A stretch of DNA of 64,000 nt from an uncultured Bacteriovoracaceae bacterium (GCA_937952285.1 CALFZE010000104.1:1932-65931), one strand, 5' to 3'; positions 8,889 to 62,341 are shown, numbered from the stretch's first letter. Translations and numbers: made by a program. The notes: generated by a model from the sequence alone, not told the origin.

Positions 8889-9410
8889 TCAGCGATCCAA
8901 AGGAATCGTGACGGGACCCCAGTTCGTGAAGCTCAGGTCCATATCGGCGCCAAAAACACCGAAGATCTGCGCGTAGCCGCGCTTCTCCGCCCGCAAACGC
9001 TCCGTCAGCGCACCGAACCGCGCACGCGCCAGATCGGGCGCCATCGCGTCGGTGAAGGAGGGGCGAAAACCCGACTCGAGCGAGGCCGCGAGCGTGAATT
9101 GGGGAACCCAAAGAATTCCTCCGCCGGCCGCGCCGGCCACCGGCGCGTAGTCGGCGAGCGCCCTGTTCATGCGACCGCCCGCATCCGGAAAAACCCGCAG
9201 CCCTTGAACTCGCGTCACGAGCCATTCCTCGGCGCGGGCGAGTTCCCCGGGATCGCGGGTTTCGTCGGCCCGCGTCCATCCGATCAGAACGACGAAACCC
9301 GGTCCCTCGAAACGATCCGTCCGCGTCTGCGCGTCCCCCTCGACGCGCGAAACGATGGAAGCCCCGTCGCGAACGCGCTGAACCACGATTTTCACGGGGA
9401 CTCCATCCAA
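8889..9410 (-). CDS. dtd: D-aminoacyl-tRNA deacylase
   Basis: KIVVQRV, PQFTL, GFRPSF and the Gly-cisPro motif NWGPVT. Confidence 0.93.
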   Translation of the reverse strand: MDGVPVKIVVQRVRDGASIVSRVEGDAQTRTDRFEGPGFVVLIGWTRADETRDPGELARAEEWLVTRVQGLRVFPDAGGRMNRALADYAPVAGAAGGGILWVPQFTLAASLESGFRPSFTDAMAPDLARARFGALTERLRAEKRGYAQIFGVFGADMDLSFTNWGPVTIPLDR

Positions 9411-11170
9411 TGAAAGAGGACGAAGGGGCGCAGGCCGCTCTGCTTCTTAACGAAACGAGCGAGCTCCTCGGCCGCCTCCTGCTCGATCTGACGGCGGCCG
9501 GCCGGACGCGCTCCCGACTTCGTCAGCAAGCGGTAGCGCGAATGAACCCACCCCTCGATCTCGGCCAGAAGCTCTTCCCGATCGAAAGCGAGCTCGCCCT
9601 CCTCGGGCCACATGCCCTCGGCCGAAACGCGGCACCGACCGCCGAGATCCAAGGAAACGACGAGACAGCCGCCCGACGCGGCCCGCTTACGGACCCGCAA
9701 GAAAGGATCCTTCGAGGAACACGCAAAATCCTCGAAGCGCAGCGATCGACCAGGCGCCTCGTACGAGCGATCCCGGCGCGAAAGCCGCCAGTTTCCGGCT
9801 TCCCAAGCGAAACTCAGTTGCGTGCCGTTCTCGGCCAGGTGAACGTCGGCTTCTTCGAGCCCCCAAGCGGCGCCCTCCCGAAGCGCCAAGTCCGCGCAAG
9901 CCCGCAACTGACGAAACTCGCCGTGAACGGGAATAACCTGCCGCGGCCTTAAAGTGCGCAGCAACTCCCGGATCTCCTCGGAGCGCGCATGACCGCTGGC
10001 ATGAATCGGTCCTCCGGCGCGAAGCTTCGCCTCGTCTCCCCAAAGCACCTCCGCCCCCCGCTTCATCAGCCCGTTCACGAGACGCCCCATGGGTCGCTCG
10101 TTCCCCGGAATCAACTTGCTCGAGAAGATGACCCGGTCTCCCGGCTCGAGCACGAAGTCGGAGTGTTCGCCCGCGGCCAAGCGACGGAGGGCGCTTCGCG
10201 TTTCACCCTGCGAACCCGAACAGATCACGAGCTGTCTCGAAGGTTCGAGCCGAGCCAACTCGCGCGCTTCGACGACGCGCGCCCCCCGAACGTCGGCCGT
10301 CTCGTCGAAGAGCCCCAGCTCGCCCGCGAGACGGAAAACGTTCTGCAGGCTTCGGCCCGCGAAACTGACGTGGCGACCAGCCCGCGCCGCGATGTTGAGG
10401 AGCGCGGCGATGCGGTAAACGTTCGACGCGAAGAGGGTCACGAAAACCCGGCCCTCGGCTTCGGAAACCAGGCGCTCGAGACCCGGAATCACGTCGAGTT
10501 CGGAAACCGAATGCCCCGGCCGTTCCGAGTTCGTCGAGTCCACGAAAAGAAAATCCGGATCGTCTCCGAAAACCCGGTAGGCGCTCGTTTCGATCGTGCC
10601 GTCTTCGAAGCGCCCCGCGTCGAGCTTGAAGTCCGCCGTGTGAATCACCCGCAGCGGCGCGGCCGGCGATCGCCATTCAAAAGCCAACGAACAACTGTCC
10701 GGCGTGCTGTGCCGGGTCTCGACGAAAGTGACGTCGACATCCGCGGAAAGCGCGAGACGGGATCCTTTCTCGAAGGTCTCGATGAGGTCGGCGTACCGTC
10801 GAGCGCTCGGATAGCGTCGATCCTCCTTAAAACGCTCCCGCATGAGCGCGGCCGCAAAACGCGGCGCCAACAACTTGGGCGGCGGAAGCCCGAGCCGTTC
10901 GGAAGCCGCGACGATCGAGGTCGCGGCGCCGATGTGGTCTTCGTGCCCATGGGTAAAGATCCAAAAACGCGGCCGGTAAGTCTCGAGTATCTCCGTGTAA
11001 TCGACGCTGAGGGATTCGATCCCGAAGTCGTTCGGATCCGCGAACAAGACGCCGGCGTCGACGGGAACCGCGGTTTCGCCGAAGCGAAAAAGCATGCAAT
11101 TCATGCCGACTTCGCCGAGTCCCCCGTAGGGCTGCCAGCGAAACAAGCGTTGGGAGGATTCCGACGACAC
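9392..11170 (-). CDS. rnj: Ribonuclease J (MBL/beta-CASP)
   Basis: GGLGEVGMNC, THGHEDHIG, HTADFKLD, DSTNS, GSQGE, IHASGHA and PVHGE. Confidence 0.93.
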   Translation of the reverse strand: MSSESSQRLFRWQPYGGLGEVGMNCMLFRFGETAVPVDAGVLFADPNDFGIESLSVDYTEILETYRPRFWIFTHGHEDHIGAATSIVAASERLGLPPPKLLAPRFAAALMRERFKEDRRYPSARRYADLIETFEKGSRLALSADVDVTFVETRHSTPDSCSLAFEWRSPAAPLRVIHTADFKLDAGRFEDGTIETSAYRVFGDDPDFLFVDSTNSERPGHSVSELDVIPGLERLVSEAEGRVFVTLFASNVYRIAALLNIAARAGRHVSFAGRSLQNVFRLAGELGLFDETADVRGARVVEARELARLEPSRQLVICSGSQGETRSALRRLAAGEHSDFVLEPGDRVIFSSKLIPGNERPMGRLVNGLMKRGAEVLWGDEAKLRAGGPIHASGHARSEEIRELLRTLRPRQVIPVHGEFRQLRACADLALREGAAWGLEEADVHLAENGTQLSFAWEAGNWRLSRRDRSYEAPGRSLRFEDFACSSKDPFLRVRKRAASGGCLVVSLDLGGRCRVSAEGMWPEEGELAFDREELLAEIEGWVHSRYRLLTKSGARPAGRRQIEQEAAEELARFVKKQSGLRPFVLFHWMESP

Positions 11171-21040: not shown

Positions 21041-21070
21041 CTTGAACGGCGAAGTTTGCCGCCGTTCAAG
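21041..21070. terminator. Hairpin between convergent gpmA and pif1
   Basis: Perfect 11-bp stem CTTGAACGGCG/CGCCGTTCAAG with an 8-nt loop. No strong U-tract. Confidence 0.5.
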
Positions 21071-22355
21071 TCTCGGCCGTGTCCGCGATCAGGCTTCGAT
21101 GGAAGGCCGCGACCTGCGGATCGGCAAAAATCGATTTTGCGTCCCAGCCGTCGACCGTAAGGTGCTCCGAACTGCGCACGCGGCTAAGCGCGACGTAGGC
21201 TTGGCCCGGCTCCCAAAGCTGCTTGAGTGAAACGATCGCGCGATCGATGGTCGCGCCCTGCGCTTTGTGGATCGTCACGGCGTAGGCCAAGTTCAGCGGC
21301 AAGTTGCGGGCCGCCGCGCGCTCGTTACCCTCGGCATCGAGGATAGAGAACCGCGTCGCTTCGATCTGCGCTTGCTGCCCGTTCATGAGCTCGACGTCCA
21401 CGCTCGTCGCGTTCATCTCGCGCACGAAACCGAGGCTGCCGTTCACCCAACGCCCACGCGGGTCATTCTGGCGGATCATGACGAGGGCCCCGAGCTTGAG
21501 TTCCAGGACTTCGGGCACCGGGGCCTGGGCGACCAGAGTCGCGCGCAGGCGTTCGTCGCCGGAGTAGCTCGTTTCGTAAGTTCGCGGGGTACCCGTCAGC
21601 TTATCGAGGCGGCGGCGGTTGATGGCATCGACGTCGGCCTTCTTGGCGTAAAGGGCCGTCGCCTCGGAGATCTCGTCGCCGGGATTCTTGGAGCGCCACT
21701 CGAGCAGATTACAGACGCGTTCGCTCGCGTGACCGACGCGCACGTCGGCCAGGAACTCGCAGTAGTCCACGTCGCCCTTGGCGCGCATCATTTCGGTCAG
21801 GTGCACCGAGCGGAACTCCGTCGCGGCCCAAGCTTTCGAGAGGAAGGCCCAGTCGCGTTGGCGCGAATCGCGCGAGACCGGCGGCAGCTGCGCGAAGTCC
21901 CCCACGGCCACGACCTTTAATCCGCCCCAGGGGCGAGGATCGTCCCGCACGAGCGAGGCGATGCGCTCGGCCACCGCGAAGGCGAGGCCCGGAATCATGG
22001 AAACCTCGTCGAGCACGAAGCCTTGCGCCTTCTTGAGACGCCGCACGACCCGACGGTCTTTGAGCGCGCGATCCACCGCCGCGTGCGGGCCGCCTTCGAG
22101 GATGCCCAGGCCAAAGAAGCTATGGAAGGTACGCCCGCCCACGAGCACCGCGGCCGCGCCCGTGCTCGCGAGCACGGGAAACTTGAGCGCGTCGAGCCGC
22201 CGCAAGTAAGCCCGCAAAAGATGACTCTTGCCCGTGCCCGCGCCACCGGTGATGAAGACGTTACCGTCTTCGGCGAGGTAACGGAGCGCGAGCGATTGCC
22301 CCTCGTTCAGATCACGATTGAGGGTCGCAAGCAGTTCCGGAAGGAGTGAGGTCAT
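21066..22355 (-). CDS. Pif1-family SF1B DNA helicase
   Basis: FITGGAGTGKS, TLHSF-like TFHSFFG, DEVSM, PWGG..VVAVGDFAQLPPV, LAYAVTIHKAQG and GQAYVALSR. Confidence 0.93.
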   Translation of the reverse strand: MTSLLPELLATLNRDLNEGQSLALRYLAEDGNVFITGGAGTGKSHLLRAYLRRLDALKFPVLASTGAAAVLVGGRTFHSFFGLGILEGGPHAAVDRALKDRRVVRRLKKAQGFVLDEVSMIPGLAFAVAERIASLVRDDPRPWGGLKVVAVGDFAQLPPVSRDSRQRDWAFLSKAWAATEFRSVHLTEMMRAKGDVDYCEFLADVRVGHASERVCNLLEWRSKNPGDEISEATALYAKKADVDAINRRRLDKLTGTPRTYETSYSGDERLRATLVAQAPVPEVLELKLGALVMIRQNDPRGRWVNGSLGFVREMNATSVDVELMNGQQAQIEATRFSILDAEGNERAAARNLPLNLAYAVTIHKAQGATIDRAIVSLKQLWEPGQAYVALSRVRSSEHLTVDGWDAKSIFADPQVAAFHRSLIADTAET

Positions 22356-22603
22356 CCGCGGCGCTTCGCGATCCAGCCGCGGACTTCTTCGACGCCGCGT
22401 AGGAGCGTGCCGTCTTTCAGCTTCAACGCGGGGGGCGTGTCGCCACCGCTTAGAAGGCGAAGCTCGGCAAGCGCCGTTTCGCTCACGTCGATGTTTCGGA
22501 AATCGACTTCGTCCCGGATGCCGGCGTCCACGATGAGCTTGCGAACTTCGGCCGAAGCCACGTCCGCGAGGCGATGAAAGAGTTCATGACGAGCGTCCGA
22601 CAT
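22352..22603 (-). CDS. Small glutaredoxin-like-fold protein lacking CxxC
   Basis: 84 codons from ATG 22603. ELFHR...FRNID....TPPAL....LLRG pattern resembles Grx-fold proteins. 4-nt overlap with pif1. Confidence 0.55.
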   Translation of the reverse strand: MSDARHELFHRLADVASAEVRKLIVDAGIRDEVDFRNIDVSETALAELRLLSGGDTPPALKLKDGTLLRGVEEVRGWIAKRRG

Positions 22604-22681
22604 AGGCCTCCAACCTGCCACTCCCCGCCGGGCGAGCCAAGGCCCCCACGGATCGAGGCGCGCTTCCTGCATCTTGGTTAG

Positions 22682-22849
22682 TTATAACGAGATCAGATTA
22701 CGCTTGGGCGCGTTGGCGCTTTCGCCTGGAAAACGCCGTCTTCGCCTCATTTGACTCAAGAGTTTCACGACTTTCGCCGTTAAGAGCCCTAGTTCCGCTA
22801 GGGCTCTTAGGACTTGCAAGATCTGCAGCGCTAACTGCGGGTCTAGCAT
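22682..22849 (-). CDS. 55-aa Leu-rich peptide with basic patch, copy A (putative type I toxin-like)
   Basis: AGGAGG lies 5 nt before the ATG. Translation: MLDPQLALQILQVLRALAELGLLTAKVVKLLSQMRRRRRFPGESANAPKRNLISL. Paralogous to 62137-62277, with synonymous codon changes. Confidence 0.7.
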   Translation of the reverse strand: MLDPQLALQILQVLRALAELGLLTAKVVKLLSQMRRRRRFPGESANAPKRNLISL

Positions 22850-22874
22850 CAGGACCTCCTCCCGGAGGACCTTC

Positions 22875-22924
22875 CTTGGGCCGACCTCAATCCGTGAGGG
22901 TTAAGGTCGGCCCAAGCAGTTTTT
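22875..22924 (+). terminator. Terminator-like hairpin on the strand antisense to peptide A, just upstream of wzm
   Basis: 13-bp perfect stem CTTGGGCCGACCT/AGGTCGGCCCAAG followed by CAGTTTTT. Confidence 0.55.
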
Positions 22925-22968
22925 AGGGCGCTTTGACCCCCGCCCTTCCAGGGATTATTTCCTACCGC

Positions 22969-23826
22969 GTGAATCCGGAATCCACGGCCGCCGCCGAACC
23001 CGTCGTCCATATTCGCGCCGATCGCGGGAACTGGGACTTCCACAATCTCGTCCGTGCCCCCATCCAGGAACTCGTTCAGTTCAAAGAGCTTATCCGGAAT
23101 ACCGTCGTTCGCGACATCAAGGTCCGTTACAAGCGCTCCGTCCTTGGGATCGCCTGGACGATCATCGCGCCGCTCATGCAAATGATCGTCATGTGGACGG
23201 TCTTCACGAAGGCCTTCCAGGTCTCGATGCCGAACTACGCCCTCTATCTCTTCAGCGGCATCATCACCTGGAACCTCTTCTCGCAGTCTTCCGTGGCGGG
23301 CGGCGCCTCGATCCTGGGCGCGGCCGGGCTCATCACCAAGATCAAGCTCCCCCGCGTGCTCTTCCCGCTCACCGCGGTCATCAATAACCTGGTGAACTTC
23401 AGTTTCGCCTTCGCCGCCCTGCTTCTGCTGATGGTCGTCACGCGCGCGCCCTTCCATTGGACGATGCTGAGCGTCCCCTTCATGCTGCTGCCGCTCATTC
23501 TCTTCTGTATGGGCTGGGCGATGCTCGTTTCGGCGCTTTCCGTGTTTTTCCGCGACCTGCAGTACATCCTTGAGATCGCGCTCGGCGCGCTCTTCTACGC
23601 GACGCCCATCTTCTGGGATCCCACGGCCCTGCCCGCGAAATGGCATTGGGTCGCGTCGGTCAACCCGCTCGCCAAGTACGTCTTCATGATGAAGGCCAGC
23701 ATCTACCACGGGGTCCTGCCGAACTTTTCGACCTATGCCATCGCGACCTTCACCGGCCTGGCGATGTTTGTGATCGGCTGGATCGTTTTCCAACGCCTTC
23801 AACGCAAATTCATCTACTGGATCTAG
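22969..23826 (+). CDS. wzm: Polysaccharide ABC transporter permease
   Basis: RDIKVRYKRSVLGIAW, FFRDL..I, FYATPIFW and NPL. Six hydrophobic segments. The start (GTG 22969 or TTG 22933) is uncertain. Confidence 0.95.
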   Translation: MNPESTAAAEPVVHIRADRGNWDFHNLVRAPIQELVQFKELIRNTVVRDIKVRYKRSVLGIAWTIIAPLMQMIVMWTVFTKAFQVSMPNYALYLFSGIITWNLFSQSSVAGGASILGAAGLITKIKLPRVLFPLTAVINNLVNFSFAFAALLLLMVVTRAPFHWTMLSVPFMLLPLILFCMGWAMLVSALSVFFRDLQYILEIALGALFYATPIFWDPTALPAKWHWVASVNPLAKYVFMMKASIYHGVLPNFSTYAIATFTGLAMFVIGWIVFQRLQRKFIYWI

Positions 23827-23829
23827 ACG

Positions 23830-24585
23830 ATGGCGACTTCTTCTTTGCTCACCACCCCGGCCGTCGAGCTCAAAGGCGTCGGCGTTCGCTACCAACTCAA
23901 TCTCGAGAAGGTCTTTTCTCTTAAGGAACTCCTCGTCTCGAAAGCGACCAGACTAGGTCGTCAACTCCGGGGTAGAGAGCAACAAAAAACCCGGCGAACG
24001 GCTGACGATTTTTGGGCCATCCGAGATATCTCCTTCTCCGTTCCCCGCGGCGTATGTATCGGCCTTACCGGACGTAATGGTTCGGGCAAATCGACTACAC
24101 TGAAAGTCATTTCCGGCGTACTGCACCCCACCGAAGGTGAACTTTGGGTACGAGGGCGCGTCTCGGCACTTATTGAACTAGGCGCGGGTTTCAACCCTGA
24201 TCTCACAGGCCGCGAAAATATCTACTTCGGCGCTTCCGTTTCGGGCCTATCTCGCGCCGAAACGGCCAAGCGCATCGATCGCATCGTGGATTTCGCCGAA
24301 CTCCGCGACTTCATCGACATGCCAGTTCGTAACTACAGCTCGGGCATGTACGCACGACTTGGTTTCGCGCTCGCGACGGACGTCGATCCAGATCTGCTTA
24401 TCGTCGACGAGGTTCTCTCCGTCGGCGACGCCCCCTTCCAGCAAAAATGTAAAGATCGCATGGAAAGTTTCAAAAAACGCAACAAGACGATCCTATTCGT
24501 AAGCCACGATCCACAAGCCATCCAAGATTTCTGCGATACTACGATTGAACTCAAGGACGGGCGCATCAACTCTCCAAACCCGTGA
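23830..24585 (+). CDS. wzt: Polysaccharide ABC transporter ATPase (no C-terminal CBM)
   Basis: GRNGSGKST, GFNPDLTGRENI, YSSGM.ARLGF, DEVLSVGD..FQQK and FVSHD. Confidence 0.96.
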   Translation: MATSSLLTTPAVELKGVGVRYQLNLEKVFSLKELLVSKATRLGRQLRGREQQKTRRTADDFWAIRDISFSVPRGVCIGLTGRNGSGKSTTLKVISGVLHPTEGELWVRGRVSALIELGAGFNPDLTGRENIYFGASVSGLSRAETAKRIDRIVDFAELRDFIDMPVRNYSSGMYARLGFALATDVDPDLLIVDEVLSVGDAPFQQKCKDRMESFKKRNKTILFVSHDPQAIQDFCDTTIELKDGRINSPNP

Positions 24586-24597
24586 TAAGAATCAAGA

Positions 24598-26007
24598 GTG
24601 AGTCGCACCTCCCTCATTTTCATCTGGCTTGCTTTCGCTGCGTGGCTGACCATTCTCGTCGCAAAGTCGATCCCGTTACCCGTCGCCCCCGGCACCGATT
24701 TCTGGTCCCTCTCTGCCTCGGAGATTCTCGCACAAGCCGGATACTCAGATTACGGTAGCTACATTAAATACGCTCGTATTCTCGCGAGCGGAGCACTGAA
24801 CAGCCCCCACGAAGATGCGTGGGTCACGAACATCTGGCCTCCGGCCTTTCCCTTGGTGATCGCCTTTCTCTTAAAGACAGCCGGTGAAGCAAGCTACGGA
24901 TTCAAACTGGGTATCTTGACCGTACTCGCCTGGGCCACCGTCCTGACCCATTTCCTCAAGAACGTCCCCTTCCTCAGATCCACTTGGGCACGTTTTCTCG
25001 TTCTTGCGTCTGTTTGCGCCTTACCCGAGTTTCGTCAATGGAGTTTCGGCACAGGTATTCTGATGACGGAATCTCTTTCGATGGCTCTCTTCGTTTTGGC
25101 GGGCGCTTTTTTCTACAAGGGAATCTCGGGTGACGGCCGCAAAGCCTATCTCATCGGAACCTTGTTTCTCGGCCTCTCCGCTAACTTCAAAGCCCTCTTG
25201 GATGGTGTCTTCGGCCTTCTTTTCCTGGCCTTGCTTGGGGGACTTGCCTTCGTTGCCCTCCTTGAGCACCGAATCATTCCACTTTGGATCGAGGAAGCCG
25301 AACGACCACGTTTTCGCGCACGTTTGCCTGACCGCATTCCTGCCATGAAAACCGTTTTTCTTTGTTTCCTTGTCCTTGGGGCCACCACGGCGCCTTGGAA
25401 GATGCGCAATTTTTTACACAATGGACCCTACGCGATGTCACCGCTTGGCCTTGATCTCAACTGGGAATACCAGTGGTCGCCAACCGATAAACTTGCAGGA
25501 TTCGTGCACGCGGGTAACACGGCCTGCGCCGTAAACCCGGCCCCTTGCCCGATCATCTACGAAAACCGCCACGCCTGGGGTCCGAAAGTACTCCGCTCGC
25601 TCGTCCTCGGTAGCCTCATGGCGAACCCCAGTGCATGGATTCGCTATCGTCTCGAACGAGTGAATTGGCTTTGGGTTGGAGTCCCTTGGCCCAAGAACTT
25701 TGAAGAGGCAAAAAGAACTTTCTTTCTATACGTTGAAGGATTTGCGTATATCGCCGCCGCCGCTTTCGGGCTCTGGCTCCTTTTGAAACATTGGCGAGCT
25801 CGAAGAGCACGATGCTTGAGCACAGAAGATCTCGAACGGCTCGGTCTTCTTTTCGCTCTTTTTTTCGGGATCCACGCGGCAAGCTTTCTAATCTTCCACT
25901 TCGAATCCCGCTATTCACTCTTTTGGCGAACTTCTTGCTTCCTGTTTTTGGCGTTCGTAGCCGCACGTAGAGCAACCCAAGAAAACGAACGATCCGTCGC
26001 AACCTGA
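24598..26007 (+). CDS. Multi-TM membrane protein, GT-C/ArnT-PMT-like
   Basis: Many TM segments, an acidic motif in the first outer loop (SDYGSY), WPPAFP, MTESLS and a C-terminal RY motif. Confidence 0.65.
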   Translation: MSRTSLIFIWLAFAAWLTILVAKSIPLPVAPGTDFWSLSASEILAQAGYSDYGSYIKYARILASGALNSPHEDAWVTNIWPPAFPLVIAFLLKTAGEASYGFKLGILTVLAWATVLTHFLKNVPFLRSTWARFLVLASVCALPEFRQWSFGTGILMTESLSMALFVLAGAFFYKGISGDGRKAYLIGTLFLGLSANFKALLDGVFGLLFLALLGGLAFVALLEHRIIPLWIEEAERPRFRARLPDRIPAMKTVFLCFLVLGATTAPWKMRNFLHNGPYAMSPLGLDLNWEYQWSPTDKLAGFVHAGNTACAVNPAPCPIIYENRHAWGPKVLRSLVLGSLMANPSAWIRYRLERVNWLWVGVPWPKNFEEAKRTFFLYVEGFAYIAAAAFGLWLLLKHWRARRARCLSTEDLERLGLLFALFFGIHAASFLIFHFESRYSLFWRTSCFLFLAFVAARRATQENERSVAT

Positions 26008-26010
26008 TGG

Positions 26011-26550
26011 TCAGCCTTTCAAGAGGTATGCCTTAAAAGCAGATGTTTTACGTTGATACGCCTCGCGCTCAGCAAAGTAAAACTGAAGATCCAAATCTTC
26101 TTGTCCTTCGGCTAGGACAAATCCAATGGACCGGTTGAACCGAATAGCTCGTGTATTCTCCTTGAGAATATGCGCCCGTAAACGCTTAAGACCGAGAACA
26201 TCAAAACCAAAATCGTACATCGCAAATGTCGCCGCCATACCAACCGGGGTATTCCACAGATCTGAACGGGCCACGTAAATACCGCCTTCTCCTTCACCCT
26301 TCTCAAAGTCACAGTCCTTAATATTTACGACGCCGACCGATTCCCCACGCCATTGGATGACGTAATAGTACTGCGTACGAAAATCGAGGGAATGAAACCA
26401 AGCGGTCTGCATCTCGGCGGAGATATGCCCCCGAAAATTCATGTAGCGGGAAACTTCAGGACTATTGCGCCATGCACGCACGGACTCAAGGTCATCGGCC
26501 CCCATGCGAGTCAAAACGACGCCATATGCTTCGATCGAAGAATGTTCCAT
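26011..26550 (-). CDS. GNAT N-acyltransferase (PseH-like)
   Basis: VRAWRNSPEVSRYM, GEGGIY, FGFDVLGLKRLRAHILKENTRAIRFN..GF. TGATG coupling to the luxC-like gene. Confidence 0.85.
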   Translation of the reverse strand: MEHSSIEAYGVVLTRMGADDLESVRAWRNSPEVSRYMNFRGHISAEMQTAWFHSLDFRTQYYYVIQWRGESVGVVNIKDCDFEKGEGEGGIYVARSDLWNTPVGMAATFAMYDFGFDVLGLKRLRAHILKENTRAIRFNRSIGFVLAEGQEDLDLQFYFAEREAYQRKTSAFKAYLLKG

Positions 26551-27728
26551 CAACCTGATCCAAAAGAGGTGCGAGTGAAAAGTTGACTCCACCATTCTTC
26601 CCCGTCCCAAACCGGACCGAAATCGTGCATCTGGGCCAGGGGAACAAACCGACTAGCTTGCGAGCGCGCGAGAGCCGCCGTGTAATGCGTATCAAAGGGG
26701 TCGCGGAGGGCATAACCGATAGTTTGCAAATTCGGAGCCGCCGTCGAAATAGCATCCTCGAGATTACCCCACTGCAGTTCAATCCCGAGATTCGACCAAG
26801 CGAAGGAAATTTTCGCCGGAGCGAGTACAAGAAGAGCCGCGTTGTTTCCCACGATCCGGCTTTCGAAGCCATTCGCACGAGCCCACTGGAGCCCGAGAAA
26901 ATTCTGACTAGCCTGGTGCTGATCGACCGTGGTCAAAGCGGCCGACTCCCAAGCCATTTCCATCTTACGCGCGAGATCAACAGCATCTTCCCGCTTTCCG
27001 CCGACTAACATGATCCGTTGGGGCGAAGTGCAACCAGCCTGGCCGTAAATGGAGAAAATCTTGACAAGCGACTCCACGGTATCCGGCCGAGATGCTTCCG
27101 ACGGCTCGATCCAGGCCTCGGATACCCGATGGGTAAAATAAAAGCCTCGGCTCGATGTCGGATGGGACAACGCCTCGATCCCCTTGGCAGCCTCATCACC
27201 TCCGAAAAGGATACGCACGTCGGACGACGACGCCATTTCTGCGTTTCGAGGATCGATCCGATCGAATACGGCAACCGAGACGCGCCCACGAAGCCATTCC
27301 GCAAGCGGGCCCGGGGAACTACGACTCGCCAAGTATTCCACAAAGGCTCCACAAAGGTCGCGACCACGGGAACCAATTTTGACCGAGAGATGAGCTCCCG
27401 TAAGCGAAATAAGTACCACAGCGAGCGGACCTAATAGGCTGACGTTATTCGGCAGCCATAGCCCCACCCGCTCCCGCGGACGGAGGAGTCCGATCGGAAT
27501 CCCCTCCCCACTTTCGGGACCGAAACTCCGATGAAAGACCTCGCTTAGATGCCCTGCTTCCAGAAAACGGATGAGATAGGCCCACTCCGTCCGGGTAAAA
27601 TCGGGGTGGCGTTCACGAATCATTTTACGGCGAACAGTTTCGTAATTCTCGAGAAGTGCATCGAGAGAAAAAGACAGCGCGATGGCGACACGACCGCCAT
27701 CGCGTCCGTAAAATCGGAGCTCAGACAT
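26550..27728 (-). CDS. LuxC-like acyl-CoA/acyl-protein reductase
   Basis: WLPNNV, ILFGGDEA, and a catalytic-Cys region YGQAGCTSPQ typical of the LuxC (ALDH-fold) family. Confidence 0.75.
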   Translation of the reverse strand: MSELRFYGRDGGRVAIALSFSLDALLENYETVRRKMIRERHPDFTRTEWAYLIRFLEAGHLSEVFHRSFGPESGEGIPIGLLRPRERVGLWLPNNVSLLGPLAVVLISLTGAHLSVKIGSRGRDLCGAFVEYLASRSSPGPLAEWLRGRVSVAVFDRIDPRNAEMASSSDVRILFGGDEAAKGIEALSHPTSSRGFYFTHRVSEAWIEPSEASRPDTVESLVKIFSIYGQAGCTSPQRIMLVGGKREDAVDLARKMEMAWESAALTTVDQHQASQNFLGLQWARANGFESRIVGNNAALLVLAPAKISFAWSNLGIELQWGNLEDAISTAAPNLQTIGYALRDPFDTHYTAALARSQASRFVPLAQMHDFGPVWDGEEWWSQLFTRTSFGSG

Positions 27729-28767
27729 TCGCGCAACCTCTCAACTCGGCCTTCGGCATGCGCCCTATGAGTTCGAAGCGACGACCGCGACGACCGCAAG
27801 GACACGGGCCCGGGATCAGTCGACCGATATCTTCGGTCAGGATGTTGTGGTACGGCGCGCCTCTCGAAATCGTGTTTATCAGCTGAAGCTGGCCGTCCCC
27901 TTCCGGAAGAGCCGCCAATGTCCACGGATCGCGCACCAGGACGTCTCCCCAAGCCGGTACGTGCCGGGCGCCAAATTCACACATGGGATAAACCATTCCG
28001 ACCTGTTCGACGAGACCATAGTAGTCCACGACTTTCGAACCGGGCGCAGCGCGAGTCAGAAGGACTCTCTCAAAATCGGCGCGATCAACTCGCGCATTCT
28101 CGAGTTTCTTCCAGCCTCCGCTATGCACAAAGGTGATCGTTCGCGTTCTTAAATCCGATTCGATATCGGCTGGCATCGTCCGATTCGCCCAAGCCATCCA
28201 AAGTGCCCAAGAGATACCATAAACGAGAAGGGGGCCCGGTTGCTTGAGAGCGCAACGAATCTGCTCTTCGTTCAGGCTCGCGGCGTCCGACGCATCCTTG
28301 AGGACAAAAAAAATCTCCGTCGCGAAAGGCTTCAGCGACATAGCCGCCAAAACGCGAGCCGAAAGCCCTTCGCGGCTCCGTAGGGAAGCGACGCCGTCTA
28401 GTACGAGGAGAGGCCGGGTTTCGCGGCCCACAAAGTCCTCCAGAATCCGAAGCGAACTCAACGACTGCAGCCGCGAGCTTTCTTCGTCGAGGGTGATCTC
28501 GCTCGCGACTCCCGAAGTCGAAGACGAACGAACGATACGACCGTGCACGATACCTTCGCCCTTCGTGATCAAACGCAGACGCTTAAAAAGACCCACGTGA
28601 AGGAAAGGCGCCTCTTCTACACTCGAAATTCTTGGAACTTTGCCGAGGATGGATGCGTAGGCAGGACAGCCACGGAAGTGCAGTTCATTCAATTCCGTGA
28701 GCCGATCCAAGAAGGCGCGCTCGTCGCGTTCCCCGTAAACTACCGTATCCGAAACCCAGGAAGACAT
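27721..28767 (-). CDS. LuxE-like acyl-protein synthetase
   Basis: SSSTSG loop, HSGGWKK, DYYGLVEQ, ILTEDIG, CPCGRRG and C-terminal ELRGC. Confidence 0.88.
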   Translation of the reverse strand: MSSWVSDTVVYGERDERAFLDRLTELNELHFRGCPAYASILGKVPRISSVEEAPFLHVGLFKRLRLITKGEGIVHGRIVRSSSTSGVASEITLDEESSRLQSLSSLRILEDFVGRETRPLLVLDGVASLRSREGLSARVLAAMSLKPFATEIFFVLKDASDAASLNEEQIRCALKQPGPLLVYGISWALWMAWANRTMPADIESDLRTRTITFVHSGGWKKLENARVDRADFERVLLTRAAPGSKVVDYYGLVEQVGMVYPMCEFGARHVPAWGDVLVRDPWTLAALPEGDGQLQLINTISRGAPYHNILTEDIGRLIPGPCPCGRRGRRFELIGRMPKAELRGCANV

Positions 28768-29711
28768 CAGGTCTCGCCTTCCTCGGGCAAGAACGTCCGA
28801 AAGAAGTCCAGTGAATCCGCCCGTACGAGGGCACAGTTAATTCGCGCCAGGGGCTGACGAAGAATAAGGGACCAGCTGGACTCAATCGTCGGCATCCAAC
28901 GGCGATAGTCGGCTTCGTCGAAAAAACGCCTCAGCATGGCCCGGCAGTCGCCGAGCGGAATCCCATGCTTCCGGAAAAGGTCGTCTACTTTAGATCCGCG
29001 GGATCGATTGTAATCAAAAACAGGCAAAAGGAGTGTCGAGCAGAGCCGTGCGTGGCCCACGGATTCCTTCGCATCACGCTTCAGAGTGGGTTCAATCTGG
29101 TGGGCGATCGCATGTATAAGTCCGACGCCCGAGCGAGATTGCAAAGAGCAAGCCTTTGCGGAAGCCTCGAACCAGGCAAAATCGCCGGTTCCCGGTTCAA
29201 GAGGGAGAAGAACGTCTCGAATAAAAGAGGCCATTTCTTCTCTCAACGCATCATTTGAGAGCGGAGACAGGAACCCTTCGAGAGCGTGAGACCATGCGTC
29301 ACCAGCGCCCCACAACGCCGCCTCCGGCGGAATCAGCTCGGTCAACTCACGCGAGTAGGCCCGAGCATCGGGCAGAAAATCCGGCCCCATCTTGATGACT
29401 TTTACGTCGCCCTCGTTGAGAACCGCAATCGGAGAATTCTCGGCCCCGCTTCCCCAAAGGGAAGGCACGACGACCATCCAAGTATCCGGGCTAAGCTCTC
29501 GGCGCCAGACTTTAGCTCGATCAATCAAAGACCCGCCTCCGACCACAACTAGGCGAGCTAAACCCGAACGAGGAGTCTCGATCGAAGCGACAACTTCGAA
29601 AGGCAGACGAGCCGAAACGAACGCGACTAGCGACCTGGACGTCCAACAAACCGTGCCTTCCTTTGGAAGATCCGTGAGGGTGGCCCAGTCGACAATCGGC
29701 GACTCATTCAT
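28767..29711 (-). CDS. Iron-containing alcohol dehydrogenase family protein
   Basis: VGGGSLIDRAK, PSLWGSGAE, and metal ligands in DAWSHALE, GLIHAIAH and GHARLC. Confidence 0.85.
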   Translation of the reverse strand: MNESPIVDWATLTDLPKEGTVCWTSRSLVAFVSARLPFEVVASIETPRSGLARLVVVGGGSLIDRAKVWRRELSPDTWMVVVPSLWGSGAENSPIAVLNEGDVKVIKMGPDFLPDARAYSRELTELIPPEAALWGAGDAWSHALEGFLSPLSNDALREEMASFIRDVLLPLEPGTGDFAWFEASAKACSLQSRSGVGLIHAIAHQIEPTLKRDAKESVGHARLCSTLLLPVFDYNRSRGSKVDDLFRKHGIPLGDCRAMLRRFFDEADYRRWMPTIESSWSLILRQPLARINCALVRADSLDFFRTFLPEEGET

Positions 29712-29952
29712 CGAAACGAATCCCCTTCTCGGTCAGGATCTCGATGATGTCCGACACCGAGGCAATACCGACAGCCTGCTCGGGCGCGAAATGGTATCCG
29801 AATGTTTCCTGAATACCGACGGCCATCGAAACCACCCCCAACGAGTCCCAAGTGGCGATGTCGGTCTTCTTGAGATCGAAATGAAACTCGTCTTCATTGA
29901 GCATGAAAACTTCCAACAAGAGAGATTTCAGTTTCTTGCGATTCTCGTTCAT
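29704..29952 (-). CDS. Acyl carrier protein
   Basis: 82 aa, acidic, with the WDSL phosphopantetheine-attachment motif. Confidence 0.9.
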   Translation of the reverse strand: MNENRKKLKSLLLEVFMLNEDEFHFDLKKTDIATWDSLGVVSMAVGIQETFGYHFAPEQAVGIASVSDIIEILTEKGIRFDE

Positions 29953-29967
29953 ATCGACCTCAGACCG

Positions 29968-31173
29968 TCAGCGATACTGTTTCCAAACGACCGTTTTGCC
30001 TTCCAGTGACGCAAGCGACTTGGCATCGGGCTTTCCATTCGCCAGGAAGGGGATATCATCGACCGATTCTATGCGAACGGGCCAATGAGGACGACGGAAT
30101 TTTTCACGGAAGACGCCGAAAATCCCCCTTAATTCCATTTCGCTGGGCCTCGGAGCCACGACCAAGACGTGTCCCCATTGCCCGTCTTTTTCTTCTTCGA
30201 GGTAAAAAGCGAAAGATCGCTTCCATACTTGCCGCAAGGCATCACCTATGACCTGAAGCGATATCTTCTCGCCAAAGCGCTTGAATACTTCGTTGCCACG
30301 TCCGACGATCCGCCAGAGGTTTTCTCCCGCGCTCTCCCCGACATCGCCGGTCGGGATCCATTCACCGACTCCGAAAGAACGAAGACCCTGCGCATCGGCC
30401 ACGGCCAGAGCTCCGTAGGGGCTGCGAAAGTGAAGGGCTCCGCCTTCCGCCACGTGCATTTCGACGCCCGGCAATGGCCTTCCTAGGATCGCCGCATCTT
30501 CCACCGTTTCGATCTTCCGGATCGTGAGTCGCGGCAAGGCCTCGGTACAGCCGAAGTTGTTATATATATCGGCACGAGGAAAAAGATCGCGGAGATAATC
30601 AAGGTCGCCAGCCGGGAAAACGCCGCCCGCGAAATTCACTCGAATCACTTCCGGGAAACGGCGGCCCGGAGAAAAATAACGCCGCATAAGAGAAACCTGC
30701 GAGCCCACGAGACAAACCATGCTCGCGGGAGATCGATCGAGCGTCTCGGCCCAACCTTCGGGATCAGCAAGCCCCGCGGTCGGGATCAACGGACGGCCAA
30801 AGACATTCGACCAGATCCATTGGTTCACCAGACAATAGGAGTAAGTAAAGGGCAGAGACGACACGGTCGTCTGAACGACTTCGAGCGACTGATGTTCGTG
30901 GATGACATGCGCCAAGGCTTCCGCGCGGGACTTAAGCCCCACGACGAGTTTCGGCGCTCCCGTACTTCCCGACGTCAAAAGGGCAAAACATCCTTCAGGG
31001 AATGCGGCGTCCACTTGTCCCAGGGTACGATCAAACCATGCGCTATCTACCGACGCAGGTTCCTGAACGAGAATCAAGCTCTCCTTCTCCCGCCAAGCCG
31101 CGCGAAGTCCCTCGAGACCTGCCCGCGTGCTTTCGAGATTTTGATGCAAGGCGGGAAACTTCAAGATCTGCAT
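29968..31173 (-). CDS. AMP-dependent acyl-CoA/acyl-ACP ligase
   Basis: LLTSGSTGAPK, NNFGCTEA, IPTGDVG, GRGNEVFKRFGEKIS and NGKPD. Confidence 0.88.
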   Translation of the reverse strand: MQILKFPALHQNLESTRAGLEGLRAAWREKESLILVQEPASVDSAWFDRTLGQVDAAFPEGCFALLTSGSTGAPKLVVGLKSRAEALAHVIHEHQSLEVVQTTVSSLPFTYSYCLVNQWIWSNVFGRPLIPTAGLADPEGWAETLDRSPASMVCLVGSQVSLMRRYFSPGRRFPEVIRVNFAGGVFPAGDLDYLRDLFPRADIYNNFGCTEALPRLTIRKIETVEDAAILGRPLPGVEMHVAEGGALHFRSPYGALAVADAQGLRSFGVGEWIPTGDVGESAGENLWRIVGRGNEVFKRFGEKISLQVIGDALRQVWKRSFAFYLEEEKDGQWGHVLVVAPRPSEMELRGIFGVFREKFRRPHWPVRIESVDDIPFLANGKPDAKSLASLEGKTVVWKQYR

Positions 31174-31181
31174 TTCGCCCC

Positions 31182-32132
31182 TTAGATCACTTCAGCGATC
31201 GAGGTTTGGGGGCGTTGGGTCGCCATCGCTAACAAGCGACGTAAGTATTCACCGATAACGCCTATGCAGAGCAAAATCAGGCCCGTCGAAAGAAAAATAC
31301 TCGCGATCACCGAAGTAAAACCAAGGGGTGCCCCAAAGAAGAGCTTCTTCGCAACGAAGAACGAACCCGCAAGAAAACTGAAGCCCGACATGAGAAGCCC
31401 CAAAAAAACGACCGCTCGCAGGGGAAGCGTCGTATAGTCGAAGACTAGACGACTCGCCATTCGCACGAGGCCCCAAATTCGATAACCAGATTCCCCAGAT
31501 ACACGTTCCCGATGCTCCACGACTACCGAAGTGACCGACCGTGTGTGCCACGAAACGAGGCCATCGAGATAAAGAGAACTCTGACTGAACTTAGTGAGCT
31601 TTTCGTAGAGCGACCGCCGAAGGAGACGAAAAGAAGATGCCTTCACTTTGCTCTCGAACGCGTAACTAAGAATACGTTGGACCCCGCGACTTCCGAGATT
31701 TCGGAGCGAACCATGTTTCTTCTCAGCGTAAACGCCATATACGAGATCGAAATTCCCTTCCTTCTGACGTTCCCGAAGCTTGAGGATTTCCGAAGGGGGC
31801 GTCTGTAGGTCATCGTCGATCGTGACCGCGAACTCTCCGCGCGCGAAGCGAAAGCCGCAAAGAGTAGCGTTGTGCTGACCGAAGTTCCGCGCCAAACGAA
31901 CGCCGCGAACCCTCCCACCCGAGGCATCGCACAACGAAACGATCGTTTTCCAGGTGCCGTCCATACTCCCGTCGTCCACGAAGATAACTTCGTAGGTGAG
32001 GCCTGCCGACCGGAAAACACGGTCCAGATGCTCCAAGAGATCGGCGAGCGTCCGCTCGGAATAATAGCAAGGGACGACCACGCTGTAGGCGATCCCAGAT
32101 TCGACGGTAGAGGGTAAAGTCTCAAGACTCAC
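31182..32132 (-). CDS. GT2 polyprenyl-phosphate glycosyltransferase (GtrB/ArnC-like)
   Basis: SVVVPCY, VDDGSMD, RNFGQHNA...G, TIDDDLQTPP, two C-terminal TM helices and IGVIGEY. Confidence 0.9.
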   Translation of the reverse strand: MSLETLPSTVESGIAYSVVVPCYYSERTLADLLEHLDRVFRSAGLTYEVIFVDDGSMDGTWKTIVSLCDASGGRVRGVRLARNFGQHNATLCGFRFARGEFAVTIDDDLQTPPSEILKLRERQKEGNFDLVYGVYAEKKHGSLRNLGSRGVQRILSYAFESKVKASSFRLLRRSLYEKLTKFSQSSLYLDGLVSWHTRSVTSVVVEHRERVSGESGYRIWGLVRMASRLVFDYTTLPLRAVVFLGLLMSGFSFLAGSFFVAKKLFFGAPLGFTSVIASIFLSTGLILLCIGVIGEYLRRLLAMATQRPQTSIAEVI

Positions 32133-32286
32133 GGCTATTGGGAAGTCCTATTAGATACGAGGGGTTTGGGCAAATCCTACCCCGGCGACAGACCTCGAAC
32201 GAGAGGGACAGACGACCCAAATCTCCCCTGGACGAGGCTTGAGAAGTTCCGAGTCATTGTTATGGTGTCCTACGGATGGAATCCGC

Positions 32287-33423
32287 ATGACGGCTAAAAT
32301 CAGCTTCAATCGCCCTACCTTAGCCGGCCGTGAGATGGAGTATCTCGAGCGGGCGGTTCGCAACGGACACATCTCCGGGGACGGGGAGTTCACCCACCGC
32401 TGCCAAAGTCTCCTCGAGCGGGAACTCGGCGCCCGGAAAGCCCTTCTCACGACGTCCTGTACGGACGCCCTCGAAATGGCTGCGATTCTTCTGGACGTCC
32501 AGCCCGGAGACGAAGTCATCGTTCCTTCCTTCACTTTTGTTTCGACGGTCAACGCCTTCGTCCTAAGGGGCGCCAAGCCTATTTTCGTGGACGTTCGTCC
32601 GGATACCCTGAACCTCGACGAACGGCTGATCGAAAAGCATCTATCGCCTCGAACAAAAGCCATCGTCCCCGTTCACTACGCCGGCGTTGGCTGCGAAATG
32701 GACGCCATCCTCGAGATCTCCGCGAAGTTGAAAGTGCCGGTGGTCGAAGACAACGCCCATGGGCTCTTCGGATCTTACCGCGGCCGCCCGCTAGGCTCGT
32801 TCGGATCCCTCGCTACGCAAAGTTTCCACGAAACCAAGAATTTCTCCTGCGGAGAGGGTGGGGTCCTTCTTATAAACGACGAAGCTTTCGTGGAAAGGGC
32901 TGAAATCATCCGCGAAAAGGGAACGAATCGGTCCCGCTTCTTCCGCGGCCAAGTCGACAAATACGGATGGGTCGATCTTGGATCCAGCTTCTTGCCCTCG
33001 GACTTGCTGGCGGCCTATCTTCTCGCCCAACTCGAAGCGAAAGACACGATCCAGAGCAAACGGGAACGTATTTGGAACCGCTATTCCGAAGGCCTGCACG
33101 ATTGGGCGGAACGATCGAACGTTTCTTTGCCCCACATCCCGAAGCACTGTGGGCAAGCCTTCCATATGTTCTACATGTTGCTCCCGAATCTTGAAATACG
33201 CCAACGCCTTATCGCGCATCTCAAAGCACAAAACATCTTGGCGGTTTTCCACTACCTCCCCCTGCACGCATCCGAATTCGGACGCAAGCTAGGAGGCCAT
33301 CCGGGTCAATGCCCCGTAACGGAAGACGTCAGCGACCGCCTACTACGCCTGCCATTTTACAACGACCTTTCGCCCGAAGACCAAGCACGGGTCATCGAAG
33401 TCGTAACGAGCTTCGAAGTTTAG
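32287..33423 (+). CDS. wecE: dTDP-4-amino-4,6-dideoxygalactose transaminase (WecE/RffA-like, DegT family)
   Basis: LLTTSCTDALEMAA, PVHYAGV, EDNAHG, SFHETKN..CGEGG, REKGTNR..FFRGQVDKYGW and FHYLPLH. Confidence 0.9.
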   Translation: MTAKISFNRPTLAGREMEYLERAVRNGHISGDGEFTHRCQSLLERELGARKALLTTSCTDALEMAAILLDVQPGDEVIVPSFTFVSTVNAFVLRGAKPIFVDVRPDTLNLDERLIEKHLSPRTKAIVPVHYAGVGCEMDAILEISAKLKVPVVEDNAHGLFGSYRGRPLGSFGSLATQSFHETKNFSCGEGGVLLINDEAFVERAEIIREKGTNRSRFFRGQVDKYGWVDLGSSFLPSDLLAAYLLAQLEAKDTIQSKRERIWNRYSEGLHDWAERSNVSLPHIPKHCGQAFHMFYMLLPNLEIRQRLIAHLKAQNILAVFHYLPLHASEFGRKLGGHPGQCPVTEDVSDRLLRLPFYNDLSPEDQARVIEVVTSFEV

Positions 33424-61990: not shown

Positions 61991-62065
61991 AAGTGCCCAC
62001 AGGGATAGCACGACGGCCGGAGCAGGCAACGCCCCCACTGGGACAGGCTCAACGACTTGGCGCGG

Positions 62066-62110
62066 AAAATGCTTGGGCCGATCCTGTCCCACGGACGGGA
62101 TCGGCCCAAG
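62066..62110 (-). terminator. Terminator-like hairpin on the strand antisense to peptide B, upstream of eno
   Basis: Stem CTTGGGCCGATCC/GGATCGGCCCAAG (62072-62110), followed on the minus strand by CATTTT. Confidence 0.5.
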
Positions 62111-62136
62111 GAAGGACCCCTTGAAAGGAGGTCCTT

Positions 62137-62277
62137 ATGCAAGACTGGCAGTTAGCCCTGCTTATCCTGCAAGTACTGAGAGAACTAGCAGTGTTGCTAG
62201 TTCTCCTTTCGGCGAAAGCCGAAAGGCTCTTGAGTCGTAAAAACCGAAGAAAGCGTCGATCCTCGCGGTCAAGCTAA
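62137..62277 (+). CDS. 46-aa hydrophobic peptide with basic tail, copy B (putative type I toxin-like)
   Basis: AAGGAGG lies 5 nt before the ATG. Translation: MQDWQLALLILQVLRELAVLLVLLSAKAERLLSRKNRRKRRSSRSS. Confidence 0.7.
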   Translation: MQDWQLALLILQVLRELAVLLVLLSAKAERLLSRKNRRKRRSSRSS

Positions 62278-62341
62278 ACCGACGTTCGGCGTGATCCGAA
62301 CCTAGCGGGCAAGGAAAGCCCCATTCCGTCCGGGGGACGCC

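Follow-up and report, generated by a model that had tools for sequence, protein, structure and literature searches.

Conserved hairpins and a constrained short peptide in a putative small mRNA repeated in uncultured bacteria: a tentative type I toxin-like family

Results

The two copies and their gene neighbourhoods

The window analysed here is a stretch of 64,000 nucleotides from an uncultured Bacteriovoracaceae bacterium (GCA_937952285.1, CALFZE010000104.1:1932-65931). It holds just two copies of a compact unit, A on the minus strand and B on the plus strand, according to searches with nhmmer, blastn and a covariance model. The features of both copies are given below, with positions counted from the first letter of the window and with the source of each assignment in brackets.

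Copy A
22916-22767, minus: copy A overall
22925..22930, minus: 5' strand of the candidate helix P0, CGCCCU, aligned with the TGGCAC of other copies (flank alignment uncertain)
22875..22916, minus: 5' hairpin H1, 16-18 bp (minimum-free-energy fold)
22896-22891, minus: invariant CACGGA at the tip of H1
22851..22872, minus: hairpin H2 (predicted folds; pairing and compensatory counts)
22860-22855, minus: Shine-Dalgarno (SD) sequence AGGAGG, the 3' arm of H2, 6 nt before the ATG
22682..22849, minus: open reading frame (ORF) of 55 codons, MLDPQLALQILQVLRALAELGLLTAKVVKLLSQMRRRRRFPGESANAPKRNLISL (ORF list; permutation test)
22815..22848, minus: start-codon hairpin H2b (RNAalifold consensus)
22781..22809, minus: in-ORF hairpin H3, a perfect 12-bp stem (minimum-free-energy fold)
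22767..22780, minus: in-ORF hairpin H4, ACGGC GAAA GUCGU (minimum-free-energy fold)
22753..22761, minus: UCUUGAGUC (alignment; codon table)
22642..22664, minus: candidate 3' strand of P0 (AGCGCG), then the 3' hairpin T, GCCUC GAUCCGU GGGGC (duplex scan)

Copy B
62072-62225, plus: copy B overall
62058..62073, plus: TGGCGCGGAAAATGCT, a sigma-54 -24/-12-like box with two mismatches to consensus
62058-62063, plus: candidate 5' strand of P0, an alternative reading of the start of TGGCGCGGAAAATGCT
62072..62110, plus: 5' hairpin H1 (minimum-free-energy fold; covariation counts)
62090-62095, plus: CACGGA in H1
62112..62136, plus: SD-sequestering hairpin H2 (minimum-free-energy fold)
62126-62131, plus: SD in H2
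62137..62277, plus: ORF of 46 codons, MQDWQLALLILQVLRELAVLLVLLSAKAERLLSRKNRRKRRSSRSS (permutation test; AlphaFold2)
62138..62171, plus: start-codon hairpin H2b (fold; RNAalifold)
62180..62205, plus: in-ORF hairpin H3, 11 bp (minimum-free-energy fold)
62206..62225, plus: in-ORF hairpin H4, 8 bp with a GAAA loop (minimum-free-energy fold)
62228..62236, plus: UCUUGAGUC (alignment)
62318..62339, plus: 3' hairpin T (terminator scan; duplex scan)

The gene downstream of copy A (22352-22672, minus strand) encodes a protein of 83 amino acids with no family match and is followed by a gene for a PIF1-type helicase (21066-22355). One assembly lengthens the 83-residue protein to 106 residues, in which form its gene would overlap hairpin T. 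Because T lacks a U-tract in copy A, transcription of the peptide gene may continue into the genes downstream. Copy A also adjoins a Wzm/Wzt-like ABC-2 export pair (permease at 22933-23826, GC3 0.85; ATPase at 23830-24585). This pair straddles the left edge of a run of genes (23830-33400) with a GC3 of 0.51-0.66, compared with about 0.8 elsewhere. The run includes glycosyltransferase genes and looks like a horizontally acquired surface-polysaccharide island. Hairpin T of copy B is found between B and a convergent gene for a protein of 464 amino acids (62342-63736); it is terminator-like on both strands and may be a bidirectional terminator.

Relatives in a second uncultured organism

Copies A and B share 74-78% DNA identity across about 190 nt. 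An exhaustive HMMER scan of 1.84 billion representative proteins returned two hits: P0003, which is a true relative, and a repeat-protein artefact. P0003 was also the sole result of a word-indexed protein search that used the peptide of copy B and a three-sequence profile as queries. The 90% cluster of P0003 has three members, which are copies C1, C2 and C3, encoded on three contigs of one other uncultured organism (JGI 3300047095, NCBI GCA_041442895.1, 49% GC). These paralogues are about 95% identical to one another, and their gene neighbourhoods are all different. There are thus two copies in the window and at least three in the other organism, each in its own genomic context, and the comparisons below are based on five sequences from three independent lineages (A, B and C) in two uncultured organisms. 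Strain variants of the window locus (L001, L022-L029) carry identical copies and hence add no information.

Scans of genome contigs with peptide patterns gave no match, and 15 matches in genome contigs to the invariant pattern from H4 to UCUUGAGUC were all due to chance. The pattern from H1 to the SD, specific for A and B, had two chance matches in metagenome contigs, inside a coding gene. No relative was found in viral contigs (three scans) or plasmids, the exact peptides are absent from the clustered protein collection, and neither the window nor the retrieved loci contained another copy according to the covariance model (R1). Rfam gave zero matches at the gathering threshold across the whole 64-kb window; the best sub-threshold scores were 14-20 bits against thresholds of 37-106, which is chance level at E <= 10. 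Searches with the peptides in Pfam (E <= 10), NCBIfam, PADLOC, PHROGs and PDB rendered no match.

Conserved hairpins and covariation

The original prediction described four hairpins, H1 to H4, conserved between the two copies. The minimum-free-energy folds of A and B contain exactly these four, with z-scores, relative to 200 dinucleotide-shuffled controls, of -6.4 (A) and -9.0 (B); the z-score of C1 is -5.8. RNAalifold, which had been suggested as a check on collected homologues, recovers H1, H2, H3 and H4 from the alignment of the five sequences and adds H2b and T. Across the eight local helices in this alignment 90.5% of the cells are paired. Compensatory changes are seen at 14 of 61 pairs, compared with 5.6 +/- 1.6 in shuffles (0 of 500 reach 14), a control that can be exceeded through relatedness alone, and with 0-4 in slid-partner controls. 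H1 (as a whole), H2 and H3 have four compensatory pairs each, and H4 has one.

The inner stem of H1 covaries across lineages, and the compensatory changes proposed for A and B are present as C-G/U-A swaps at two pairs. The outer nine pairs of H1 are the same in A and B and are not retained in the C copies. H2, proposed to be the SD-sequestering stem, is found in the folds of A and B and in the minimum-free-energy structure of every copy, with 94% of cells paired and 4 of 10 pairs compensatory, and the SD is predicted in silico to be paired with an anti-SD as in type I toxin mRNAs. H2b in copy A pairs UGCUAGA of the start-codon region with codons 10-12, AUCUUGCA; 91% of its cells are paired with zero covariation, so that its support is conservation alone. 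H3 is paired in 98% of cells, with compensatory changes at 4 of 9 pairs. Compensatory base changes in a stem inside an ORF force paired amino acid changes, and the CC-GG pairs of A are AA-UU in B, as first described, which forces Ala/Gly in A as opposed to Glu/Val in B and C. In H4 all cells (100%) are paired, with one compensatory pair and one G-U change, and the expected GAAA loop is present in A and B.

These alignments support selection on the RNA fold itself, and the case can be extended to a third, independent lineage, because C keeps H1-H4 with further compensatory changes. The substitutions of the recent C paralogues, an independent test, point the same way since they avoid the stems: among C1-C3, 6 of 134 paired columns are variable compared with 29 of 175 unpaired columns (p = 0.0009), and inside the ORF the corresponding counts are 1 of 56 and 10 of 81 (p = 0.027). 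Leu and Ser codons that are identical across lineages give further support. The covariation extends over three lineages, too few for an R-scape-type test, and is suggestive but not statistically decisive. The motif UCUUGAGUC is identical in five of five copies, including the synonymous positions of its Leu and Ser codons. It sits in a weak predicted hairpin and could be a binding or cleavage site, but no partner was found for it.

The claim that the structures work only on the peptide-sense strand has weak support. The core helices have 11 G-U cells and 4 A-C cells, in line with the sense strand, but the antisense strand folds equally well or better in four of the five copies. The sense orientation is indicated mainly by the arrangement of SD, AUG and ORF and by the GAAA loop.

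The reading frame and the peptide

The ORF of copy A is annotated as a gene on the ENA and JGI contigs; that of copy B is uncalled in every assembly retrieved. The peptides of C1-C3 are annotated from an upstream ATG, which gives nine extra residues (for example at 440-607 of locus L004). These residues are probably spurious, as the SD spacing and the homology to A and B indicate an internal ATG and a peptide of 46 residues. The SD is 6-7 nt upstream of the conserved AUG, all indels in the ORF are multiples of three, and the length of 46-55 codons is within the range of 20-60 residues of type I toxins. Alternative reading frames are open in some copies and were rejected because they have no start codon or SD, and there are no conserved antisense ORFs.

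Constraint on the peptide was assessed with a permutation test in which the same substitutions were placed at random and the BLOSUM similarity was scored. The real peptides are more similar than the random ones (P <= 0.001 for A-C1 and B-C1, 0.03-0.04 for A-B), and a stop codon arises in 57-76% of the random placements. Third codon positions show no excess of change, and codons that differ are mostly non-synonymous. This protein-level constraint and the evidence for the fold together indicate, at the level of sequence comparison, that selection is dual and that both RNA and protein are constrained.

AlphaFold2 predicts a single helix for the peptide of copy B (residues 2-45, mean pLDDT 84). 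The best 19-residue window of the Leu-rich core has a Kyte-Doolittle hydropathy of 1.3-2.5, which is borderline in A and C3, and the tail has a net charge of +7 to +10. A hydrophobic helix with a cationic tail, as modelled, is compatible with a membrane-active toxic peptide.

The codons CTA, TTA and AGA were described as rare in this genome and frequent in the two copies, and their rarity is confirmed by the 30 window genes, where they constitute 1.0%, 1.1% and 1.8% of their codon families. CTA accounts for 4 of 13 Leu codons in copy A. A CAI-like index is 0.30-0.33 for the ORFs compared with 0.53-0.81 for window genes (n=30), and the ORFs have about 51% GC while the genome has 61%. Immediately after copy C2 there is a convergent gene (3393-3476 of locus L020) for a tRNA-Leu whose UAG anticodon reads CUA. 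This Leu codon is the one that the window genome uses rarely and copies A and B use often, but this proximity is probably a coincidence.

Complementarity of the 5' end with the 3' end

Hairpin T, located 229-236 nt downstream of H1, carries UCCGU and is complementary to the loop and 3' arm of H1. When the 19-mer of H1 loop and 3' arm was compared with 4-7 kb of same-strand context, T was the top duplex partner in every copy. The duplex of H1 and T is calculated at -28 to -34.5 kcal/mol and the runner-up at -20 to -27 kcal/mol over all copies; the values are -33.8 and -20.8 kcal/mol in copy A (4.4 kb context) and -28.1 and -24.2 kcal/mol in copy B. The sequence of the H1 arm varies by lineage (GGAUUGAGG, GGACGGGAU, GGACGGGGU), yet T remains the best partner. 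A kissing loop between CACGGA and UCCGUG was considered and rejected because each motif overlaps its own stem, and an extended duplex or strand exchange is for that reason more realistic.

The fold-back is part of the minimum-energy structure of C1 and C3. When A and B are modelled with the outer 5' arm of H1 transcribed, the local hairpin prevails and no weight is left for the fold-back. With a modelled start about 12 nt past the sigma-54-like box the fold-back dominates in all copies, and P0 and one covarying pair of H1 are then outside the RNA. H2 is closed in every modelled conformation, and consequently no activation route is evident from the models.

P0 is a candidate helix of 6 bp in which the motif directly upstream of H1 would pair with the hexanucleotide adjoining T on its 5' side; RNAalifold pairs alignment columns 32-37 with 316-321. 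Its cells are 90% paired, and 4 of the 6 pairs have compensatory changes, compared with 0-1 in slid controls. Even the near-identical paralogues have a swap, U-A in C2 and C-G in C3. In copy B, where the P0 3' strand and the T stem overlap, the alignment is unreliable. Given this alignment, P0 is plausible as a closing helix but less than established.

The window also contains a gene of the RNase J family (9392-11170), which scores under the curated cut-offs of the RNase J family models. With a 5'-3' exonuclease in the organism, a 5'-terminal hairpin or a 5'-3' fold-back would be relevant to mRNA stability.

Promoter and antitoxin searches

No sigma-70-like promoter was found on either strand of A, B or C1, and relaxed scans gave only weak antisense promoter candidates whose position is not conserved. 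No other locus in the window is complementary to both copies, as might be expected of an antitoxin RNA. At the 5' edge of conservation four of the five copies (B and C1-C3) have the motif TGGCRYG-N4-WTG. Compared with the sigma-54 consensus TGGCAC-N5-TTGC, copy B has both GG and GC with two mismatches, C1-C3 have GG but GT or GA at -12, and A is without GG. There are seven sigma-54-like matches of this quality in the window compared with 6.8 expected, thus no enrichment, and no upstream activator site is shared among the copies. A sigma-54 promoter was rejected as the sole reading of the TGGCAC motif on these grounds and because the motif overlaps P0.

An A-run precedes H1 on the sense strand in both copies of the window (22920-22930 in A and 62063-62071 in B). 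Read on the antisense strand, H1 is therefore followed by a U-run, CAGUUUUUAG in A and CAUUUUCC in B, and by inspection looks like an intrinsic terminator, an arrangement that is absent from the C copies. Such a terminator could end an antisense RNA in A and B.

Discussion

Comparison with known systems

Type I toxin mRNAs are 150-400 nt long, encode peptides of 20-60 residues, have hairpins that pair SD with anti-SD, and have 5' and 3' stem-loops with a long-distance 5'-3' interaction (PMC8594479; PMC6733600). The primary transcripts of hok and aapA are inert. Ribosomes are kept from loading on the nascent RNA by local hairpins, and the full-length RNA stays locked by a 5'-3' interaction until it is opened by processing or some other trigger (PMC6733600). 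Counted from where conservation starts on the 5' side up to the 3' hairpin, the unit described here has about 290-300 nt, with inferred ends, and so lies within this length range.

The hok/sok system of the E. coli plasmid R1 and its chromosomal homologues share several traits with the unit. They have a hydrophobic peptide of about 50 amino acids, a highly folded mRNA, a 5' element complementary to a 3' element in the manner of the tac/fbi fold-back, a 5' hairpin able to form first during transcription, and several chromosomal copies. The full-length hok mRNA is inert, and a corresponding silence is inferred here. Hok has an N-terminal transmembrane segment and a periplasmic domain, whereas the peptides of the present family would combine a helix with a polybasic tail. 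Furthermore, neither a mok-like overlapping leader ORF nor a Sok-like antisense promoter was detected, there is no similarity in Pfam or Rfam that would assign the unit to Hok or to a curated RNA family, and the SD is held by an adjacent local hairpin in all modelled folds. The hok/sok features that the unit shares are described in PMC6733600 and PMC8594479.

The aapA/IsoA system of Helicobacter pylori is similar in its successive local SD-sequestering hairpins, one of which uses sequence from within the ORF, and in its multi-copy loci. Structure constrains codon choice in aapA as well (PMC6733600). The full-length aapA transcript of about 225 nt has a long-distance 5'-3' interaction, to which only complementarity corresponds here. 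In aapA a 3' anti-SD pairs with the SD itself and 3' trimming activates translation; here the 3' element is predicted to pair with the 5' hairpin and not with the SD, except in one alternative fold specific to A. No IsoA-like antisense RNA is evident, and there is no sequence similarity.

TisB/IstR-1, DinQ/AgrB and ZorO/OrzO have structured 5' UTRs that inactivate the primary transcript. Their Leu/Ile-rich amphipathic helical peptides with few charged residues resemble the peptides described here in composition only. In these families, whose genetic organisation is described in PMC8594479, an sRNA gene lies upstream in divergent orientation, and either 5' processing or a standby site is required. 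The upstream neighbours in the present case are a divergent enolase gene and an ABC-transporter gene, which leave no room for a conserved sRNA gene.

A proposed translationally locked mRNA

The unit is quite probably a structured mRNA under dual selection whose translation is gated. Because its anatomy matches the published descriptors of type I toxin mRNAs and the models for hok and aapA, we favour, while holding it slightly more doubtful than probable, the reading that it is a translationally locked, type I toxin-like mRNA of a new family and that the peptide is a putative toxin. The original prediction offered a dual-function sRNA or a tightly folded toxin mRNA; the published hallmarks agree with the second of these, but neither an antitoxin RNA nor an antisense promoter nor homology to a known toxin family was found.

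According to this type I toxin-like model each copy would be a stand-alone unit of about 290-300 nt. The peptide would consist of one long Leu-rich helix, amphipathic or of transmembrane type, and then a strongly basic tail. The mRNA appears to be built for translational silence, with H1 at the 5' end, H2 over the SD, H2b over the AUG, H3 and H4 within the ORF and T at the 3' end. T, and possibly also P0, complements the 5' end, which would allow the finished transcript to fold back on itself. The block of translation, the fold-back in vivo, a membrane-active or toxic effect of the peptide and the release of the lock are what we infer from this anatomy.

Alternative interpretations

The peptide might instead be a small protein, membrane-bound or nucleic-acid-binding, that is not toxic. 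The structure of the mRNA would then gate its translation outside any toxin-antitoxin logic; an SD hairpin of thermosensor type or a stress-induced, possibly sigma-54-dependent small protein would be examples. Sequestration of SD and AUG and the dual constraint would suit any translationally gated small ORF, the promoter scans of both strands gave no antitoxin signal, and the very cationic tail could bind nucleic acid. The motif at the 5' conservation edge in four of five copies would fit a sigma-54-dependent gene, but it is non-significant alone, incomplete in A (no GG) and in the C copies (no GC), accompanied by no shared activator site, and complementary to the 3' end with covariation. Near-identical copies in unrelated contexts would be odd for a housekeeping small protein, and the 5'-3' complementarity is likewise unusual. 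This interpretation is on the whole unlikely.

A dual-function RNA, in which a transcript of about 300 nt is mainly regulatory and also codes for a peptide, is decidedly less probable. It might act by base-pairing through UCUUGAGUC or CACGGA, or by titrating a GGA-binding protein (CsrA). Nucleotides conserved at synonymous sites and in loops (CACGGA, UCUUGAGUC, GGA-containing linkers) and substitutions that avoid stems are in keeping with such a role. SgrS/SgrT and RNAIII/hld are comparable as structured RNAs of a few hundred nucleotides with a small peptide, both under selection. Unlike in those RNAs, no base-pairing target, seed or partner was identified, nor does the window contain another sequence complementary to both copies. 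The structure is also organised round the SD and AUG of the unit's own ORF, both inside conserved hairpins, which argues that its point is control of translation. A CsrA sponge was rejected because GGA motifs are, by inspection, roughly as numerous as expected from composition, and because the weak RsmY-like match on copy B is non-significant (14.5 bits against a gathering threshold of 57).

Equally improbable is a variant of the toxin-like reading in which a previously unseen family relies for its control solely on the fold of its mRNA, lacks a cis-antisense antitoxin and is possibly expressed from a sigma-54-type promoter. In this variant the co-transcriptional SD and AUG hairpins and the hok-like fold-back would have evolved independently of known families, and the structure would be dominant enough to dictate the amino acid covariation (Ala/Gly versus Glu/Val) in the peptide.

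A repeated DNA element of MITE or REP type, with palindromes that act as DNA or as terminators and an incidental ORF, would agree with the multi-copy intergenic occurrence, the mutual inverted repeats of the 5' and 3' parts, an antisense strand that folds no worse than the sense strand and the terminator-like T of B on both strands, but it is disfavoured by the coding test and highly improbable: the ORF is under protein-level constraint and would be broken by most random placements, SD and AUG keep a conserved geometry, target-site duplications are absent from the borders of the C copies (by inspection), the inverted repeats lie short of the extreme ends of the unit where terminal inverted repeats would be, and G-U cells outnumber A-C cells in the core helices.

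Implications

Most descriptions of type I toxin families come from cultured Proteobacteria and Firmicutes, and such families are difficult to detect through homology. If the preferred reading of a translationally locked, type I toxin-like mRNA is true, the unit would represent a new type I-like family in uncultured sludge bacteria, recognised through its RNA architecture and not through its sequence. It is also a clean natural case in which RNA pairing and peptide sequence are selected together in one reading frame. Its value lies in the study of overlapping RNA and protein constraints in small genes, and as a test case for annotation pipelines, which left copy B uncalled in the assemblies retrieved. 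If the peptide is not toxic, the unit would still be a compact model of multi-hairpin translational gating.
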